A DNA stretch of 64,000 nucleotides. It comes from a phage. This document shows, piece after piece, positions 17,838-59,360 of the stretch. Each line of letters starts with the position of its first letter. Within the stretch, counting starts at the first letter, position 1. The notes beneath the pieces were generated by a model. That model ran no database searches, had not been told where the DNA came from, and saw nothing but the letters and a program-made list of their open reading frames with translations. Where the stretch lies: the sequence record PZ445530.1. The stretch is one strand, 5' to 3'. Made by a program: the position numbers and the translations under genes.

Positions 17838-19319
17838 TTACTTAGCGTACTCGATTAATTCCACAGTTTTACCAAAGCTAGGGATATAATTTTTATTATA
17901 CCCTTCGGTTAGAACCCATAAAGTATCGTACTTTTTCCACTTGTTGTCAACAGCCTTTTGTTCAAAGTTATGCTCAAAGTATAGGTCGGTCAGGACGATG
18001 ACATCTTTTGCATTTGGTATGTTGGCATCCAGATACTCGAACACGCAAGCAGCTGTTGTTCCCCATGTTGAGTGGACCTCATAGTTGATCATTTCGTCTA
18101 TGTTGCCGCGAGTGTATACTTTAACCTCTCCAACCTCAGTTGACCAACAGAACATTGTAACCTTAAACTCTTTATACAGATTGCACAATCCGGTGATTTC
18201 ATTGAACATTTTCTTTAAAGTTCTTTGAGAGATCGAGCCAGAAACGTCTAAAGCCACCACAATATCTATAGTGTTTTCCGGATTACGACCAGGAACAATA
18301 ACGTGCTGGTTCTTGTTTATAGCCCCAACTTTTCGCATTGTGCTGGTCAAAGACCCAGATCGGCGACCAGGTTTTCTGTAGGTCAGTTCGGCCTTTCTTT
18401 TAGACAACATACGTTGCTTAATGATGTCTATATAGTTGATTACAGGCTTACCTCTGTTCTTGACAAACTCACGCACCGCCTCAGGGCAACGGCCTCCGGA
18501 CGCTTGCATTGCTGCCTCCAGCATATCACCAGAGTCCTGCATGGCCTGATCTTTATCAGATTGGCTGATTACAGGTTGTGGCTGATCATACCCCATAGCC
18601 TTTCCAAGATTATCACTGGTGCCACCGTTCCCACTCATGTGATCATCGGTTTGTCGCTTATCACTTTGAGAGTTCTCACCTTTACCGTTCTTACTTTTAC
18701 CGTTATTCTGATCTCTTTGCTTATCAAGAACTGCATAAACGTTCTCAGCAATCCATCCATGAAACTTCATGTCGCAGTAGCAGCTGGCTAAGAAGCCAAA
18801 AGGCTTACCTTTCATGAACGTAGTGCTTTTCCCCTTCGGGAAGAAAACACAAGGAGGTTTGCTAAAGTCAACCACAAGGCCTGTGTTGATAACGTGATCA
18901 CAAGCAATATTGAACAGTTCCGGCTCAAAGCTTTTACCACGGACTAGGTGATCACAGATAATATGCCCCACCTCATGTGACAGAAGGAAGGCCACCTCTT
19001 TCACAGATTTTGGGGAATAGAAAACTTCAGCCATCTCAAACTGCTCGTCAGTTAGAGAAGCCTTAAGAATAGCCTTGCGTTCATCAGCCAATCCCATAAT
19101 GAACTCAGGACTGTAATAGATGCGTTTATGGTCGGTTGCCATGGTGGAGCACCATGTGTGGTTTTCTACGAACTGCAACCCTGACAGTAGTGTGCCATAA
19201 AACGGCAGCTTTTCAAGGAGATACATACGTGCAGCCTGCAACATTCTCAGGGCATCATCTTTCTGCGAGGCAATGATTTCTGAACTTCTGCTATCCATTA
19301 AAACTCCAGAAGGGGCCAT
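17838..19319 (-). CDS. VWA-domain protein with N-terminal HExxH metallopeptidase-like motif
   Basis: HEVGHIICDH zinc-binding signature; C-terminal MIDAS-like IVVALDVSGSIS. Confidence 0.7.
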   Translation of the reverse strand: MAPSGVLMDSRSSEIIASQKDDALRMLQAARMYLLEKLPFYGTLLSGLQFVENHTWCSTMATDHKRIYYSPEFIMGLADERKAILKASLTDEQFEMAEVFYSPKSVKEVAFLLSHEVGHIICDHLVRGKSFEPELFNIACDHVINTGLVVDFSKPPCVFFPKGKSTTFMKGKPFGFLASCYCDMKFHGWIAENVYAVLDKQRDQNNGKSKNGKGENSQSDKRQTDDHMSGNGGTSDNLGKAMGYDQPQPVISQSDKDQAMQDSGDMLEAAMQASGGRCPEAVREFVKNRGKPVINYIDIIKQRMLSKRKAELTYRKPGRRSGSLTSTMRKVGAINKNQHVIVPGRNPENTIDIVVALDVSGSISQRTLKKMFNEITGLCNLYKEFKVTMFCWSTEVGEVKVYTRGNIDEMINYEVHSTWGTTAACVFEYLDANIPNAKDVIVLTDLYFEHNFEQKAVDNKWKKYDTLWVLTEGYNKNYIPSFGKTVELIEYAK

Positions 19320-19331
19320 TGGCCCCTGTCA

Positions 19332-20126
19332 TTATTTAACGTGTTTGAAAATACCTGCCAACTCGGTCATTGTCATGCGGGTGGTCTTCATAAGATCTGT
19401 CATAGCTTTCTCCATAATTGGAGATACTACCATAAAGTTTCCTTTAGTGAAACCTTTATTCCAGTCGGTCACCAACAGGGGTTTAAGTCCAGCTCCAAGA
19501 CGTTCACCAGTTAAAGCACAGCATTTGCGAATATACGAACTCTTAAATTGGCTGAACGACAGATCAACTTTCATACCTACATCGTAGAACGTTTGACAAT
19601 AGAAAGTGTAAGCTTTGGCAATCTCAACATCATCAGGTAGTGCAGGAACCTCTTCTGTAAGCTCCTCTTCGACCTCCTGAGTCTCTTTTTCCTCTTCATG
19701 CACCTGTTGCGTCATTTCTTCAATCTCTTCTGTGATAGGCTCGTTTACAATGTCGGAAATGTGCTTCTTGGGTGCACGATAAGTAACTTTAGACATCGGT
19801 AGCATATCTTCCTCCTCTTCTTCGTCAAAGAGTGCTAGTTTATCCTCTTCCGTTCCATATTGCAAGATGAAATCTTCAAAAGTATAATCACCTTTCAATT
19901 TCTCCATACGCTCTTCGCTCAGGTGGAGCATCATCTGCTGGACAATTTTTCGATCAGTTTCGTCTTTAATCAAGACTGCAGTCTTTTTATCTACCAGACA
20001 GTCCTTTAGAGAGTTGCATCTCAATCCCACCACACAACAGTTATCAACCGCATAAGGACCTTCATCATCTATCCGCTCCAGAGATGGGTAGAAAGGATTC
20101 CCCAGCCCGTTTTCATCTGTGTGCAT
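19332..20126 (-). CDS. acidic hypothetical protein (264 aa; possible internal start at 19796)
   Basis: Glu-rich central region; contains internal MSKVTYRA encoded by a 27-nt sequence identical to the start of gene 21639-21995. Confidence 0.5.
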   Translation of the reverse strand: MHTDENGLGNPFYPSLERIDDEGPYAVDNCCVVGLRCNSLKDCLVDKKTAVLIKDETDRKIVQQMMLHLSEERMEKLKGDYTFEDFILQYGTEEDKLALFDEEEEEDMLPMSKVTYRAPKKHISDIVNEPITEEIEEMTQQVHEEEKETQEVEEELTEEVPALPDDVEIAKAYTFYCQTFYDVGMKVDLSFSQFKSSYIRKCCALTGERLGAGLKPLLVTDWNKGFTKGNFMVVSPIMEKAMTDLMKTTRMTMTELAGIFKHVK

Positions 20127-20381
20127 GTCAAAAGGTATAAGGGTATAGTCGCATACTCCATCTCCTAAAAGTTTTTTACCAAATAGGAGATATTCTTCCC
20201 ATGACAGGTCGAACTCTATATCTCGTTTCCGTGCGTTATTCTGTTTGCGTCTATATTTTTGAGCAAGCGCTCTAACTCTTCTGGTGTATAATATTTTTCA
20301 AGATTCATGAGTCGTCTCTCGTGCTCTGTAAGTGAAGAAATCGTATCAATTGTCTCAACAGATGTCAACATCAAAAACGTG

Positions 20382-30037: not shown

Positions 30038-31362
30038 ATGAGTAAAACCAAATTAGAACTTACCTGGATAGGTAAAAACGAGCGCAAAAAGTTAGAGCCG
30101 CACATTTTGTTAGAAGATTCTAGCAAGTCTTACCACAGCCAGAAAGTGACCGAAAACGATATTTTTGATAATAAACTGATTTTTGGAGATAACTTATTAG
30201 CATTGAAGGCGCTAGAGCAAGAGTACGCAGGCAAAGTGAAGTGTGTTTACATAGACCCACCATTCAACACCGGGAGGGCTTTTGAGCACTACGATGATAG
30301 CCTGGAGCATTCCATTTGGCTGGGCTTAATGAGGGATAGGTTAGAAATAATTCGTAATCTTCTAAGTGATGATGGGGTAATATTCGTTCACTTAGATGAT
30401 TGCGAAATGGCGTATTTAAAAGTTTTGATGGACGAGATTTTTGGTCGTGCAAATCAGTTAAATACCATATCGATGACCACAAATTCCCCTTCGGGATTTA
30501 AGGCAACGGGAGCCACAGTTTTCTCCACAGCAAACTTTTTGCTTGTATATGCAAAAGATCGCACCCAGAAACCGCTTAACAAAATCTATATACCTAAAGG
30601 GTATGATACCGGATATAACAAATACCTATTAAACCCGGATGATCATTATAAAAATTGGACGTGGTGCGGTATTGCCGATGCGTTTGCAAAGGCCAATGGC
30701 TATAAAGATGCAAAAGAAGCCAAGAAAAAACTGCCTGACACATTCGATAATGAATTAGCACAATTTGCAATTGATAATGCAGAACGTGTATTTCAATCTG
30801 TTGCAATTGGTGGTGGTGCTAAAATAAAGAGAAAAGAAACTATAGAGAAGTCAAAGAAAGATAGGGATAAGGTTTATGTACATCCAAATGAGGATGTTGA
30901 AGGATTTTATATCGCAAATGGTAGGCAAATGGTCTTTTACTCCAACAGGCTTTTGGAAATTGACGGTGATATGCAACCTGCGGAACTAATAACTGATGTT
31001 TGGACAGACATTAGTTGGAATGGAATAGCAAATGAAGGCGGCGTTAGTTTCAAAAATGGGAAAAACCAGAAGCGCTTTTGAAGCGGATTTTCGAAATGTG
31101 TACGCGAGAAGGTGATTTGGTATTGGATTCATTCGGTGGTTCGGGAACTACTGCCGCTGTAGCTCACAAGATGAAAAGACGTTGGATCTCCATCGAGATT
31201 GGTGATCATTGCCATACCCATATTATTCCGCGCTTGGAAAAAGTGATCGATGGGGAAGATCAAGGTGGTATTTCTAAGTCTGTAAACTGGCAAGGTGGTG
31301 GTGGCTTCCGTTATTACAAACTTGCCCCGACCTTAATTGCGAAAGATAAGTCTGATCAATAA
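30038..31362 (+). CDS. beta-class DNA amino-methyltransferase (N6A/N4C type), reading frame interrupted by a frameshift near 31048-31062
   Basis: Motif IV VYIDPPFN in frame A; conserved KPEALLKRI...GDLVLDSFGGSGTT (motif I) continues only in frame B; frames swap within an A-rich tract. Confidence 0.6.
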
Positions 31363-51084: not shown

Positions 51085-51094
51085 CAACCAACGC

Positions 51095-51120
51095 CCCCGC
51101 CATTGTGCGGGGCTTTTTAT
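51095..51120 (+). terminator. intrinsic terminator
   Basis: CCCCGC-CATTGT-GCGGGG hairpin followed by CTTTTTAT. Confidence 0.55.
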
Positions 51121-51302: not shown

Positions 51303-51563
51303 ATGCGTAAATTAAAAAATTTTGATAAAGTTGATGTTGTCCTGAATAATTTTTACTACTGCAACAACAAGGCCATTTGGTGGCGTGATAGTTCCACCGA
51401 TAAAGTCAAGGCGCGCTTTCTCCAGGGGCACTGGCAAGGCCGCCCAGTGATTAAAATCATGGGGCAATTGGTAGCGTTTAAAAATTGCCGCCGTGTTGAT
51501 GACGTTGAGGAGATTTTAAACATTTTGCGCCACAATAATTTAAAAAATAGTGTTGACAAGTAA
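51303..51563 (+). CDS. hypothetical protein (86 aa)
   Basis: ATG downstream of cassette. Confidence 0.5.
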   Translation: MRKLKNFDKVDVVLNNFYYCNNKAIWWRDSSTDKVKARFLQGHWQGRPVIKIMGQLVAFKNCRRVDDVEEILNILRHNNLKNSVDK

Positions 51564-51580
51564 ATCTCAATAAGTATAAT
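51553..51580 (+). promoter_or_regulatory. early-type sigma70-like promoter (cassette 6) followed by 5' hairpin
   Basis: TTGACA - 16 bp - TATAAT; hairpin GGCGG-GAAAACTTA-CCGCC at 51591-51609; SD caggagaaaa before ATG 51638. Confidence 0.55.
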
Positions 51581-51637: not shown

Positions 51638-52262
51638 ATGACCACCGTTAACATTACCACAGGTTACAATTTATCTTTCGACGTGCTGACCGATGAACAA
51701 AAAAGAAAAAGCTATTGAAATGGTCCGCGAAAGAGAAGAACACAGCGGGGATAACTTTTTTGCAGAAAGTGTAATTGAAGACTACAAAGAACATATCTTT
51801 CCAGAGTATGGCCTTGAAGATACCAAGGTACATTGGTCCGGCTTTTGGTGCCAGGGCGACGGCGCGTCAATCAGTGCGGAAAACGTGGATTTAGAAAAAT
51901 TCTTGCGTAAAGTCAAGTCTCTGACTAAATTCCGCTCAATTCGTCACTTGTTCGGCACAATGCACGATGGCGAGCTATCCGCAAGTGTTGAGCGTGATCC
52001 ATATAGCCGCTATAGTCACGAAAACACTGTAAGCGGGTACATCGATACTACATGGCTAGACCTGACAGCCAAGCAAGAAAGTAAGGTTGAAGAGCTGGAA
52101 GAGTTGATCACCGAGAACGTACGGGAACTATCCCGCAAGGTTTACGTAGACCTGGAGCAAGCTTATCTTGAACAATTTACTACCGAAAACCTGATCGGCC
52201 TTATCGAGGCCAATGATTGGCGGTTTGATGTGGATGAATATGGAGAGATGAGTTTTTCATAA
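51638..52262 (+). CDS. hypothetical protein; frame interrupted after 26 codons at an A-rich tract (about 51699-51712), continuing in another frame as track ORF 51693-52262
   Basis: Cassette-positioned ATG at 51638 hits a stop after 26 codons; the long ORF resumes in a different frame within GAACAAAAAAGAAAAAGC and its own ATG lacks an SD. Confidence 0.4.
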
Positions 52263-52270
52263 ATAAAGTG

Positions 52271-52299
52271 TTGCAATAATCTAAAAACCTGCTATATTA
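52271..52299 (+). promoter_or_regulatory. early-type sigma70-like promoter (cassette 7) followed by 5' hairpin
   Basis: TTGCAA - 17 bp - TATATT; hairpin GGGGCAA-GACGT-TTGCCCC at 52307-52325; CACACAAAACAAAGAGGAAAA leader. Confidence 0.55.
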
Positions 52300-52352
52300 A
52301 AACTCAAGGGGCAAGACGTTTGCCCCCCACACAAAACAAAGAGGAAAACATC

Positions 52353-52733
52353 ATGAAAAACACTACTAAAGCTATTGACACCGTCATGTTTAACCTGGTT
52401 ACCTTTCGCGAGGATATGAAAGATCTTCCACGTGAAACAGTGTGCGATCACATTGAAAACTATCGCAAACTAATCAAAGAGTTGCCTTTAAAACGTGATC
52501 AGTATGCGGCTAACGCCATGCTTAATGCCATGATCAAAAAGATGATCCAGTGTGATTTAACTCTGGCCTATGACTATGCGGGTGGTCGTTTTGCAGTATA
52601 CAATCAGCCCGTGCCCGGTATGGGCACCACCGAAGAATTGCACGCGTTAAATCTGAAGCAAGATGTATGGGATAACATGCCCCGCGTGGTGGTGTGGGCA
52701 GAAAGCGGAAAGATTTACGGCGATAATTTTTAA
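52353..52733 (+). CDS. hypothetical protein (126 aa)
   Basis: ATG at cassette position. Confidence 0.5.
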   Translation: MKNTTKAIDTVMFNLVTFREDMKDLPRETVCDHIENYRKLIKELPLKRDQYAANAMLNAMIKKMIQCDLTLAYDYAGGRFAVYNQPVPGMGTTEELHALNLKQDVWDNMPRVVVWAESGKIYGDNF

Positions 52734-52736
52734 TCA

Positions 52737-52768
52737 GGTAACAGGCGGCATATTTGCCGCCTTATTGT
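52737..52768 (+). terminator. putative intrinsic terminator
   Basis: AGGCGGCA-TATTT-GCCGCCT hairpin followed by TATTGTT. Confidence 0.4.
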
Positions 52769-52797
52769 TAAACAGAGCTGCAAAAGAGGTACATAGA

Positions 52798-53169
52798 ATG
52801 GAATTTATTATTTTGGCTGTAGTAGTTGCCTTGTTCAACGCCTGGATAGCTGGCAAAATAGGTAGATCCGCTTTTCTATGGTTTGTTATATCTATTTTCC
52901 TGGGAGTGGTTGCAACCATTGTACTAGTTATCCTTGCAATTGTTGACAAGGATAATAATAAGAAGGGTAAAGTATTTTCCGACCTGTATGACGCCCAAAC
53001 TTTTGTTAACGCCTATTATAGTGATCTTCCGGTCTCCTTGCGCTGCAGCCTGGCGCAACAAGTTTTTGATGAGGCTAAAACCAGAGATCAAGCCCATGAG
53101 ATATGTTTAACTGAGGCGGATCGCCTATTTGAGAGGAATAGAAAATATGTGGGCCAGCCGTTTAAATAA
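52798..53169 (+). CDS. membrane protein (123 aa)
   Basis: ATG after aaagaggt; two hydrophobic segments near N-terminus. Confidence 0.45.
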   Translation: MEFIILAVVVALFNAWIAGKIGRSAFLWFVISIFLGVVATIVLVILAIVDKDNNKKGKVFSDLYDAQTFVNAYYSDLPVSLRCSLAQQVFDEAKTRDQAHEICLTEADRLFERNRKYVGQPFK

Positions 53170-53392
53170 TACCACGTTAATTAATCCCTTTAGTGAAGAT
53201 TTGAAGCCAGCCGCCTGGCGTGATGGATTCAATAACGAACGCTTTATTTTCAAGCCTGATCTTGAGGAATTTTATAACAATGGATCGAACAACAGCGGAG
53301 ATAATTTTTCTTGGGATGTGCGTGGTGATGGTACTCCTGGGGGCCATTGTAAACCACGTCACTACTACCAGGAGGAAAGGGGGAGACGATGA
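53147..53392 (+). CDS. hypothetical protein (81 aa)
   Basis: ATG after gagaggaatag. Confidence 0.4.
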   Translation: MWASRLNNTTLINPFSEDLKPAAWRDGFNNERFIFKPDLEEFYNNGSNNSGDNFSWDVRGDGTPGGHCKPRHYYQEERGRR

Positions 53393-53508
53393 CAACCAAG
53401 GATAAGCCCCGTACCGATAAGGCGCGCCGGGTTATGGTATGGCTTGAGATCATCGCCCTTGAAATATTGCTAGGCGTAGGGATGTACTTTATCGCTGTAA
53501 GTAACTAA
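53389..53508 (+). CDS. small membrane protein (39 aa)
   Basis: Strong RBS caggaggaaaggggg; hydrophobic C-terminal half; ATGA overlap. Confidence 0.45.
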   Translation: MTTKDKPRTDKARRVMVWLEIIALEILLGVGMYFIAVSN

Positions 53509-53512
53509 GAAC

Positions 53513-53540
53513 GGCCCCCGATCATGGGGGCCTATCTTTT
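53513..53540 (+). terminator. intrinsic terminator
   Basis: GGCCCCC-GATCAT-GGGGGCC hairpin followed by TATCTTTTT. Confidence 0.6.
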
Positions 53541-53563
53541 TAAAAAATTTCCCTTTCAGGGTG

Positions 53564-53591
53564 TTGCAATCCGGTCCGCAATATGGATAAT
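53564..53591 (+). promoter_or_regulatory. early-type sigma70-like promoter (cassette 8) followed by 5' hairpin
   Basis: TTGCAA - 16 bp - GATAAT; hairpin CGGGGA-AACA-TCCCCG at 53601-53616; CACACAAACAAAAG leader. Confidence 0.5.
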
Positions 53592-53650
53592 AACAATCAA
53601 CGGGGAAACATCCCCGCCACACAAACAAAAGCCCGAAGAGGAGAAAGAAG

Positions 53651-53850
53651 ATGAGCAACAATATCCGCGTTATTAACTTCAAAAAGAAGAAAAAATTGCC
53701 GTGCTGATTGACGGTCAAGAAATCTTCAAGGGCGACTATGAAGATCATCAAACGGCGATTAGTATCACTCGCGTGATTGGTTATCATAATTTCTACCCCC
53801 AAGGCGCTGAGGCAGCAGTTAAACGAATCAAAGAGATTGTAGGCCTGTAA
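53651..53850 (+). CDS. small hypothetical protein; frame interrupted at an A-rich tract (about 53683-53696)
   Basis: Cassette ATG at 53651 hits a stop after 17 codons; a 51-codon ORF continues in another frame through stop at 53848-53850; one extra A in the run would fuse them. Confidence 0.35.
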
Positions 53851-55412: not shown

Positions 55413-55466
55413 ATAAATCAAAGGGGGGCAACAAGCCCCCCACCAACCACAAAGAGGATAAAAATC

Positions 55467-57529: not shown

Positions 57530-57791
57530 ATAAGGCAACTATGCAAACGAATGGCATGGCGCGACGGAGTCGCGACATAATATAAAAGCAGTAACCATCA
57601 CCCCCGTGATAGTTTGTCTGCAAACTATTAATCAGATCATAGTTGCCTTGTATTTAGTTAATCATGACATAACAAGCAAGGCAACTATAGATCTGCTAAT
57701 AGTTGCCCTGCTTTTATATTATGTCATGCTAATTATAATCAGTGCGATTATTGTCATGTATAATTATTGTCATGCAAACGAATGGCATGGC
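57530..57791. repeat. repeat cluster: 20-nt perfect direct repeat ATGCAAACGAATGGCATGGC (57541-57560, 57772-57791) and four alternating AGTTGCC/GGCAACT copies
   Basis: Direct repeat 231 bp apart; AGTTGCC-family at about 57534, 57641, 57680, 57701; palindrome CGCGAC-GGA-GTCGCG at 57562-57576. Confidence 0.6.
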
Positions 57792-57800
57792 TGATTATCG

Positions 57801-57890
57801 GTGTGTAAACAGTCAATCATGTAAATGGTTAGCATGTGAACAATCAGGAATGTAAACAATCCAGTGTGTAAACTAATAGGTGTGTAAAAG
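57801..57890. repeat. iteron-like array: six copies of TGTAAAC-like heptamer at 15-16 bp spacing
   Basis: TGTAAAC 57804, TGTAAAT 57820, TGTGAAC 57836, TGTAAAC 57851, TGTAAAC 57867, TGTAAAA 57883. Confidence 0.6.
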
Positions 57891-58439
57891 TGTCATGTTG
57901 TGTCAGTTAGGTCACATTATGTCAGACAAGTTTTTCTCCTCTTTGTCAAGTGCTGCATGAAAAATTTACAAACTGGTATGGTAGCATTTTTGCGGCCCTG
58001 TTTACATTCAGTAATGTATGTATAATCCTTGTTGTGTGGGCGTTTAGACGTCTAGACGGTTGGAAGTCCACAGGTCAATATCTAATCTATCGGCTGCTAA
58101 CTATATCCCACACAAATAGCAAGAAATATGATTGTTATATGCGTAAACTGTAACTCATGTTATCAATCCCTGTATGGATCGCCAGTGGTGCGCATAATGG
58201 GTATTATGTTAAATTGCCCGTAATGATAACTATTCTCACAATGATAGGTATTCTCATTCATCCACATAAAATAGGTTGCAAATGTTGTGCCACTGTGTGA
58301 ACGGCCTGGCCTATTAATTTGCCTCACTGCCTTGATATTTGAGAATTGTTATAAGAATGAGAAGTATTCCCATTTCGTCCGCCTGGCAGCACTCCTGTAG
58401 GTCAGGTCAAAATCGTGGTAGAATTGGGCCTGTTCAGAT

Positions 58440-58700
58440 ATTTCTGGCTGACTCTTCAGGTCTGTGTGGGAAAAGCCAACCTCTCCGGCGGGGCAGGGGG
58501 TCATGACGGGAAAATTGCAGGTCAATTAAAAATTTACGTGGTGTATGAAGCGCTCTTCAGGTAAGGCATGTATTATGGGATGAAACCCGCTTCAGGCAAT
58601 GATATTTGTGGGTGTGATATTTGCTGGAAAGCCAGATATGACGGGACTCCCGGCGGGGATGGGGTAGTACAGACAGGGAAAATATGAGAATGTAGTTGGG
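58440..58700. repeat. degenerate ~70-bp direct repeats (CTTCAGG...GTGGG...GAAA(A)GCCA...CTCC(C)GGCGGGG...ATGACGGGA) in ORF-free region
   Basis: Ordered shared blocks about 58446-58515 and 58570-58680; no ORF of 60 codons or more on either strand 58154-58776. Confidence 0.45.
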
Positions 58701-59360
58701 GAAATTGATCAGACAGGTAGAGTATGGAATATGTTACAAGTATGTTAAATATGGAGGTTGAATATCTGTAGGATTTGTGTGTAAAATCAAAGACTTAAGG
58801 GGTGTTGTGGTATTTTCTATAAATAATTCAAGTTTAATAGGCAATATTTGTCTCTATCCGTTTTGTGTGGTAAACAGATTCAGATTAGATTGGTTTACAA
58901 GTGTATACATAATATACAAATTAAAGATACAAGAAACCCCCCTCCCCCCTTCGGCTACCATTCACCTTTTCCTCTGACTGGTACTTAAACACTTATTCAG
59001 ACTCTTCAGGTTATCACCCATATATCATATGGCAGTGACTGGTGTCCTCCGGCCCCTCTTTCGTCACCCGTCCGCTTCGCCATGCTAATGCCATAGCCAA
59101 TGGTTCGGTTGTTCACCCTGTTCACTCAGGTGTATCTCCATACCCCTTCAAACCGAAGAGAACAGAAAACCCGAATTACTCGGTAAAAGAAAAGAGAAGA
59201 ACTTAATTTTATCAGGATAGGCAAGAATGTCAAGGCATGACTGCTCACTAAACAAGCAAACAGTCATGTGTGGAAGGTAAGTGATTGTGGTGGTGGGAAA
59301 TTTAGTTGAAAGATGTGTTATAGGTGCTTCCAGCACTTTAGCCGGGCAGCTAATTGTGTG

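Follow-up and report, generated by a model that had tools for sequence, protein, structure and literature searches.

Single-base changes in short homopolymer runs interrupt four genes of a Vequintavirus genome segment and are probably homopolymer miscalls

Two small early genes in the phage DNA studied here, at 51638 and 53651, start at well-placed ATG codons and soon meet a stop, while a longer open reading frame carries on in another frame that is entered within a run of A residues. Such a break can reflect the deposited sequence, a mutation in the phage, or a gene that is read in two frames, and we therefore asked which of these readings best fits the two loci and the whole 64,000-nucleotide stretch of DNA in which they lie (the window). 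On the basis of sequence matches, the window is a segment of a Vequintavirus (rV5-like) Escherichia coli phage genome. A 24-kb stretch of it (28-52 kb) matched 141 records, nearly all of them from phages of this kind, and for the 2.5 kb surrounding the two early genes 120 phage records matched at 90-96% identity. The closest match in the phage collection was ∼96% identical to the window, and no record was identical to it; exact look-ups with two truncated products specific to the window returned nothing. Seventeen GenBank records (MG0656xx) that are titled 'UNVERIFIED: Campylobacter phage ...' carry Vequintavirus taxonomy and are ∼95% identical to rV5-like E. coli phages, so that their host label looks doubtful.

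The early-gene region extends from 47 to 57 kb and consists of small genes, each arranged in a cassette with a sigma-70-type promoter, a short GC hairpin, a Shine-Dalgarno sequence and then the gene. Sigma-70-type promoters of this kind are annotated in the records of rV5 and Gotham. Outside this region, several homing-endonuclease insertions of the relatives are absent from the window; at ∼35513 and ∼43545 such insertions, near the DNA polymerase gene and other genes, interrupt its alignment with three of them (L007, L009 and L005).

The gene at 51638 is a homolog of rv5_gp180 and is preceded by a promoter (51553-51580, TTGACA-16-TATAAT) that matches the sigma-70 consensus at 12 of 12 positions. 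Reading from its ATG ends at a TGA after 26 codons, and the 189-aa open reading frame lies in the +1 frame. In navn, Gotham and rV5, rv5_gp180 is an uninterrupted 624-nt gene that starts at the same ATG. The sole difference that matters in the alignment is a GAAC-A6-G in the window against GAAC-A5-G in all others: the run was A5 in 27 of 27 fetched loci, which represent ∼25 distinct genomes including metagenome-assembled contigs, and A6 in the window only. In a tblastn search with the first 45 amino acids of gp180, 163 records matched at least 80% of the query within a single stretch, and identity to this N-terminus was 90% or higher in 114 of the matching records overall. An IMG/VR search for gp180 relatives returned two loci only. 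When one A is deleted from the run, the window sequence encodes a 207-aa protein with a single terminal stop.

The gene at 53651, a homolog of rv5_gp174, has a poorer promoter match (53564-53591, 9 of 12 positions) and is broken in the opposite sense. Its translation reads MSNNIRVINFKKKKKLPC up to the stop, which amounts to 18 sense codons, and the remainder lies in the -1 frame. The orthologs are 201-nt genes with TTC-A6-G where the window has TTC-A5-G. Intact gp174 contains two A-runs, and among the fetched loci (∼25 genomes) the combination A6 plus A6 was found in 26, A5 plus A6 in the window only, and A6 plus A7 in the phage WalterGehring. Of the 120 records found by tblastn with the first 34 amino acids of intact gp174, 116 cover the query; among the 60 matches listed, WalterGehring alone matched in two pieces, and two partial matches were contig ends. 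A variable-gap pattern spanning the A-runs matched three metagenome contigs and one IMG/VR contig, all of wild-type length. Addition of one A to the window sequence gives a 66-aa protein with a single terminal stop.

For both early genes the reading given by the initial annotation was largely borne out. It had placed the breaks in A-runs, and this is where they are found, with the long open reading frames in the +1 and -1 frame, respectively. The start codons it chose are those at which the intact orthologs are annotated to begin in navn, Gotham and rV5, and the good Shine-Dalgarno sequences it described are of the GGAG type at both ATGs. The stop it reported after 26 codons in the first gene was correct, while the 17 codons it counted in the second should read 18.

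A third break, which the initial annotation located at 31048-31062 in a DNA methyltransferase gene, does indeed fall in an A-run, namely the second of the two that begin in this interval. With one A restored, the methyltransferase becomes a 441-aa protein with a single terminal stop, and its residues 67-393, which extend across the break, match the N6_N4 methyltransferase family PF01555 with 147.5 bits (gathering cut-off 26.7). No Pfam family was matched in searches with gp180, gp174 or the protein of a further interrupted gene, which is anti-sigma-factor-like. The claim of three breaks in three A-tracts holds for all three genes and is nevertheless an understatement, since this anti-sigma-factor-like gene on the minus strand is a fourth one broken in a homopolymer (20256-20260), and four non-coding length differences come in addition (Table 1). 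After the one-base repair, none of the broken genes contains another stop or indel, and each carries 0-2 private amino-acid changes. The corresponding runs are invariant in 9-27 fetched relatives, one of which shares only 89% protein identity.

Table 1. Interrupted genes and altered homopolymer runs in the window.
Feature	Position	Strand	Detail
Anti-sigma-factor-like gene, 325 aa in relatives	19316-20310 (ends approximate)	-	broken at about codon 17-18
T5 on the plus strand (coding-strand A5), one base missing	20256-20260	-	T6 in 12/12 relatives
N6/N4 DNA methyltransferase gene, 441 aa when repaired	30038-31362	+	split: 30038-31081 and 31078-31362
A5 run, one A missing	31061-31065	+	relatives GGG-A6 or GGA-A7
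Non-coding C5 (versus C4)	51094-51098	+	5' arm of terminator stem; uncompensated, makes a bulge
rv5_gp180 homolog, 207 aa	51638-52262	+	split: 26-codon ORF 51638-51718 and 189-aa ORF 51693-52262
A6 run, one A in excess	51699-51704	+	A5 in relatives
rv5_gp174 homolog, 66 aa	53651-53850	+	split: 18-codon ORF and 49-aa remainder 53701-53850
A5 run, one A missing	53681-53685	+	A6 in relatives
Non-coding A5	58528-58532	+	A6 in 11 relatives
Non-coding C6	58944-58949	+	C5 in 10 relatives

The extent of these changes was determined by a homopolymer survey, in which the window was aligned to 12 relatives and the length of every run was compared between 18 and 62 kb; private run-length changes could be scored in 11 of the relatives. 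The window has eight private changes, at 20256, 31061, 51094, 51699, 53681, 55436, 58528 and 58944, and shares them with no relative. All eight fall in the 174 tested runs of at least five bases, and none in the 1,721 tested runs of three or four. Four are coding, all of them frame-breaking, and four are non-coding. With 55436 left aside, three of the changes are +1 and four are -1. Among the 11 relatives, the number of private run-length changes per genome ranges from zero to four; together they have 11, three of them coding. Private substitutions in the window number 126, which is mid-range relative to the 70-223 of the relatives, and 80% of them are transitions; a check of these substitutions for a nanopore or methylation-motif error signature revealed none.

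From the pooled indel-to-substitution ratio, 0.9 private length changes would be expected against the eight observed (Poisson P ∼4e-6), although this approximate value overstates the significance because the ratios of individual genomes are overdispersed; in WalterGehring, for instance, there are three length changes per 70 substitutions, which is close to the ratio in the window. Coding DNA holds 73% of the runs of at least five bases, and the four coding changes out of eight in the window are compatible with random placement (P = 0.14). The private changes of the relatives, with 3 of 11 in coding DNA, are depleted there (P = 0.002), which is the pattern that selection would leave among real mutations. 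The four coding changes in the window spare the known essential genes of replication or structure, and all 55 runs of at least five bases in the tail-fibre region (1-18 kb) are unaffected; these two observations, which are not significant (Fisher P = 0.36), count weakly against miscalls.

The non-coding changes are of two kinds. The terminator stem at 51094 is conserved and perfect apart from the extra C of the window. The sites 58528 and 58944, at which a search for tRNA genes found none, lie between the early genes and the minus-strand genes, in a non-coding part of the genome (∼57700-59000, roughly 2.5 kb) that has no tRNA gene; short motifs (GTGTGTAAAC-like) are repeated there many times, and indel variation among the relatives is heavy. 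A different case is presented by the promoter-proximal hairpin at 55423-55441 (GGGGGGC-AACAA-GCCCCCC), which has G6 and C6 arms in the window only. The arms of this cassette hairpin are shorter in the relatives, and their lengths vary between phages yet stay matched. The C6 at 55436 was considered as a sequencing error and rejected: since it is matched by the G6 of the opposite arm, it is a real, compensated variant.

We consider it probable, at roughly 0.6, that the frame breaks are homopolymer miscalls, a technical origin that is inferred here from the sequence comparisons. The deposited or assembled sequence would then miscount the homopolymer length by one base at each break, and the real phage would encode an intact 207-aa gp180, 66-aa gp174, 441-aa N6-adenine methyltransferase and 325-aa anti-sigma-like protein, as its relatives do. 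Runs of five or six bases are typically over- or under-called in flow-based or nanopore reads, or where polishing was weak. The restriction of the changes to runs, their excess and the normal substitutions fit miscalls that are laid over an otherwise accurate sequence. Like the homopolymer assembly errors of pyrosequencing, Ion Torrent and nanopore data, the changes in the window involve single bases in runs of at least five, have both signs, occur in coding and non-coding DNA, and split otherwise intact genes at normal substitution quality. Unlike such errors, they are few (7-8 in 64 kb), and some of the genes they affect are also genuinely broken in relatives sequenced on Illumina. The systematic homopolymer sequencing error put forward by the initial annotation is upheld as far as homopolymer indels are concerned, and a technical origin is the likeliest one; that the error is systematic is something we infer, and a mixture of errors and mutations is possible.

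Alternatively, the breaks may be real and recent replication-slippage frameshifts that inactivate dispensable accessory genes, at some or all of the sites and perhaps together with errors. We regard this as a serious though rather unlikely explanation, under which propagation in the laboratory could have given rise to the frameshifts or enriched them. Much of what speaks for it comes from three relatives with Illumina assemblies. WalterGehring and EmilHeitz were sequenced by Illumina NextSeq at 50-100x coverage (PMC8594841), and O157 typing phage 14 by Illumina MiSeq (PMC4429339). In WalterGehring, the second gp174 run is changed from A6 to A7 (L010:7412-7467) and gp174 is unannotated in the record. 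In EmilHeitz, a T5 of the methyltransferase gene has become T6 and the annotated gene is shortened (L007:31767-32801). In O157 typing phage 14, whose closest allele type reads GGA-A7, the same methyltransferase run that is altered in the window is GGA-A6 (L026:556-1880), and the gene is annotated as two CDS. This run has accordingly changed twice, in the window and in typing phage 14, and such changes are rare among the ∼85 close relatives surveyed; the two gp174 runs have changed once each, in the window and in WalterGehring, which is likewise rare among the 120 records surveyed.

Since these Illumina-sequenced relatives carry independent breaks, real slippage mutations do occur in the gp174 and methyltransferase genes, which favours real mutation. 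That the same target genes are broken in the window and in the Illumina relatives is not expected from random error. Real mutation is further favoured by the accessory character of all four broken genes, by the resemblance of the window's private substitutions to ordinary evolution, and by the private change at 55436, which is clearly genuine. Several observations argue against it. Four knock-outs in 44 kb stand against at most one in any of the 11 relatives (three in the 11 genomes together), neither of the two early-gene alleles occurs in any other of ∼116 records, and none of the broken genes shows secondary decay. Moreover, the window has further, uncompensated changes at non-coding runs that are otherwise invariant.

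If the breaks were real, the N6-adenine methyltransferase gene of Vequintavirus and small early genes driven by sigma-70 might carry recurrent on/off mutation hot spots in their short coding A-tracts, a weak, phage-borne analogue of phase-variable mod genes; leaky +1 and -1 slips of the ribosome on these Lys codons would leave some residual full-length protein. We think it improbable that this extended scenario applies. What it shares with the phase-variable Type III mod genes of bacteria is a DNA methyltransferase gene in which a coding homopolymer has gained or lost one base, and some depositors annotate the Vequintavirus methyltransferase as a Type III methylation subunit. The methyltransferase run has also changed independently in another phage. 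Unlike phase-variable tracts, which are usually longer, the tracts in the window are 5-7 bases long, and the broken alleles are rare, amounting to a handful among the surveyed records.

Programmed or adventitious recoding, in which ribosomal or transcriptional slippage on the A-runs would restore the frame during expression, appears highly improbable, and this holds for all routes taken jointly. In the gene at 51638, the route would be a +1 slip at CAA-AAA-AGA, with tRNA-Lys re-pairing on AAA and the rare AGA codon in the A site; in the gene at 53651, it would be a -1 slip at C-AAA-AAG, with a stem 7 nt later. Judging from the sequence, the product of either slip would be identical to the wild-type protein. 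The correction of indels at the level of translation is reportedly a described phenomenon, treated in a review, and counts in favour of recoding. The stem lies inside the gp174 coding region, where 53694-53702 can pair with 53754-53762 over 9 bp from 7 nt after the A-runs, with a fold z-score of -2.3. Most of it is retained in the relatives, where both partners of one pair have changed, and the covariation is weak (term -0.61 for nine sequences), which counts against recoding and gives weak grounds for regarding the stem as a conserved RNA structure. Downstream of the 51699 site no structure was found (z = -0.26).

The slippery sites themselves also compare unevenly with known systems. The window shares Lys-codon slippery sequences with dnaX (A-AAA-AAG, -1) and prfB (+1), and the rare AGA after AAA at the first site and the stem downstream of the second resemble elements of programmed frameshifting. 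In contrast to dnaX and prfB, the need for a frameshift is not conserved, C-AAA-AAG is not a canonical X-XXY-YYZ heptamer, an upstream Shine-Dalgarno-like stimulator is lacking, and there is no alternative product with a plausible role. The two-frame architecture is not conserved either, as the fetched relatives and ∼116 tblastn records are single-frame for gp180 and gp174. Programmed recoding is thus unsupported because no relative shares the breaks, in agreement with the initial annotation, which had held slippage and programmed frameshifting to be less likely. Because the relatives are in frame, any slip at the A-runs would be a leaky rescue rather than a designed signal. Transcriptional slippage would call for ∼8 or more A/T against the 5-6 nt found here, and E. 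coli RNA polymerase does not slip efficiently on runs as short as A5-A6.

Reinitiation could also contribute to expression downstream of the breaks. The stop of the short open reading frame adjoins an in-frame ATG in the gene at 51638 (TGAAATG at 51716-51722) and a GTG in the gene at 53651 (GTGCTGA at 53701-53707), and starts at these codons could, to judge by their position, yield N-terminally truncated products.

With homopolymer miscalls as the preferred reading, the finding is an ordinary one that matters mainly for annotation. Each of the four genes of the window is best entered as one gene with a probable sequencing frameshift, or as a probable pseudogene, in preference to two short novel open reading frames, and the short 'genes' of 26 and 18 aa are not to be taken for genuine products. 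Should the breaks prove real, they would add one more independent homopolymer knock-out of the methyltransferase to the small set from this phage group, and all four interrupted genes would be dispensable for the growth of this rV5-like phage.
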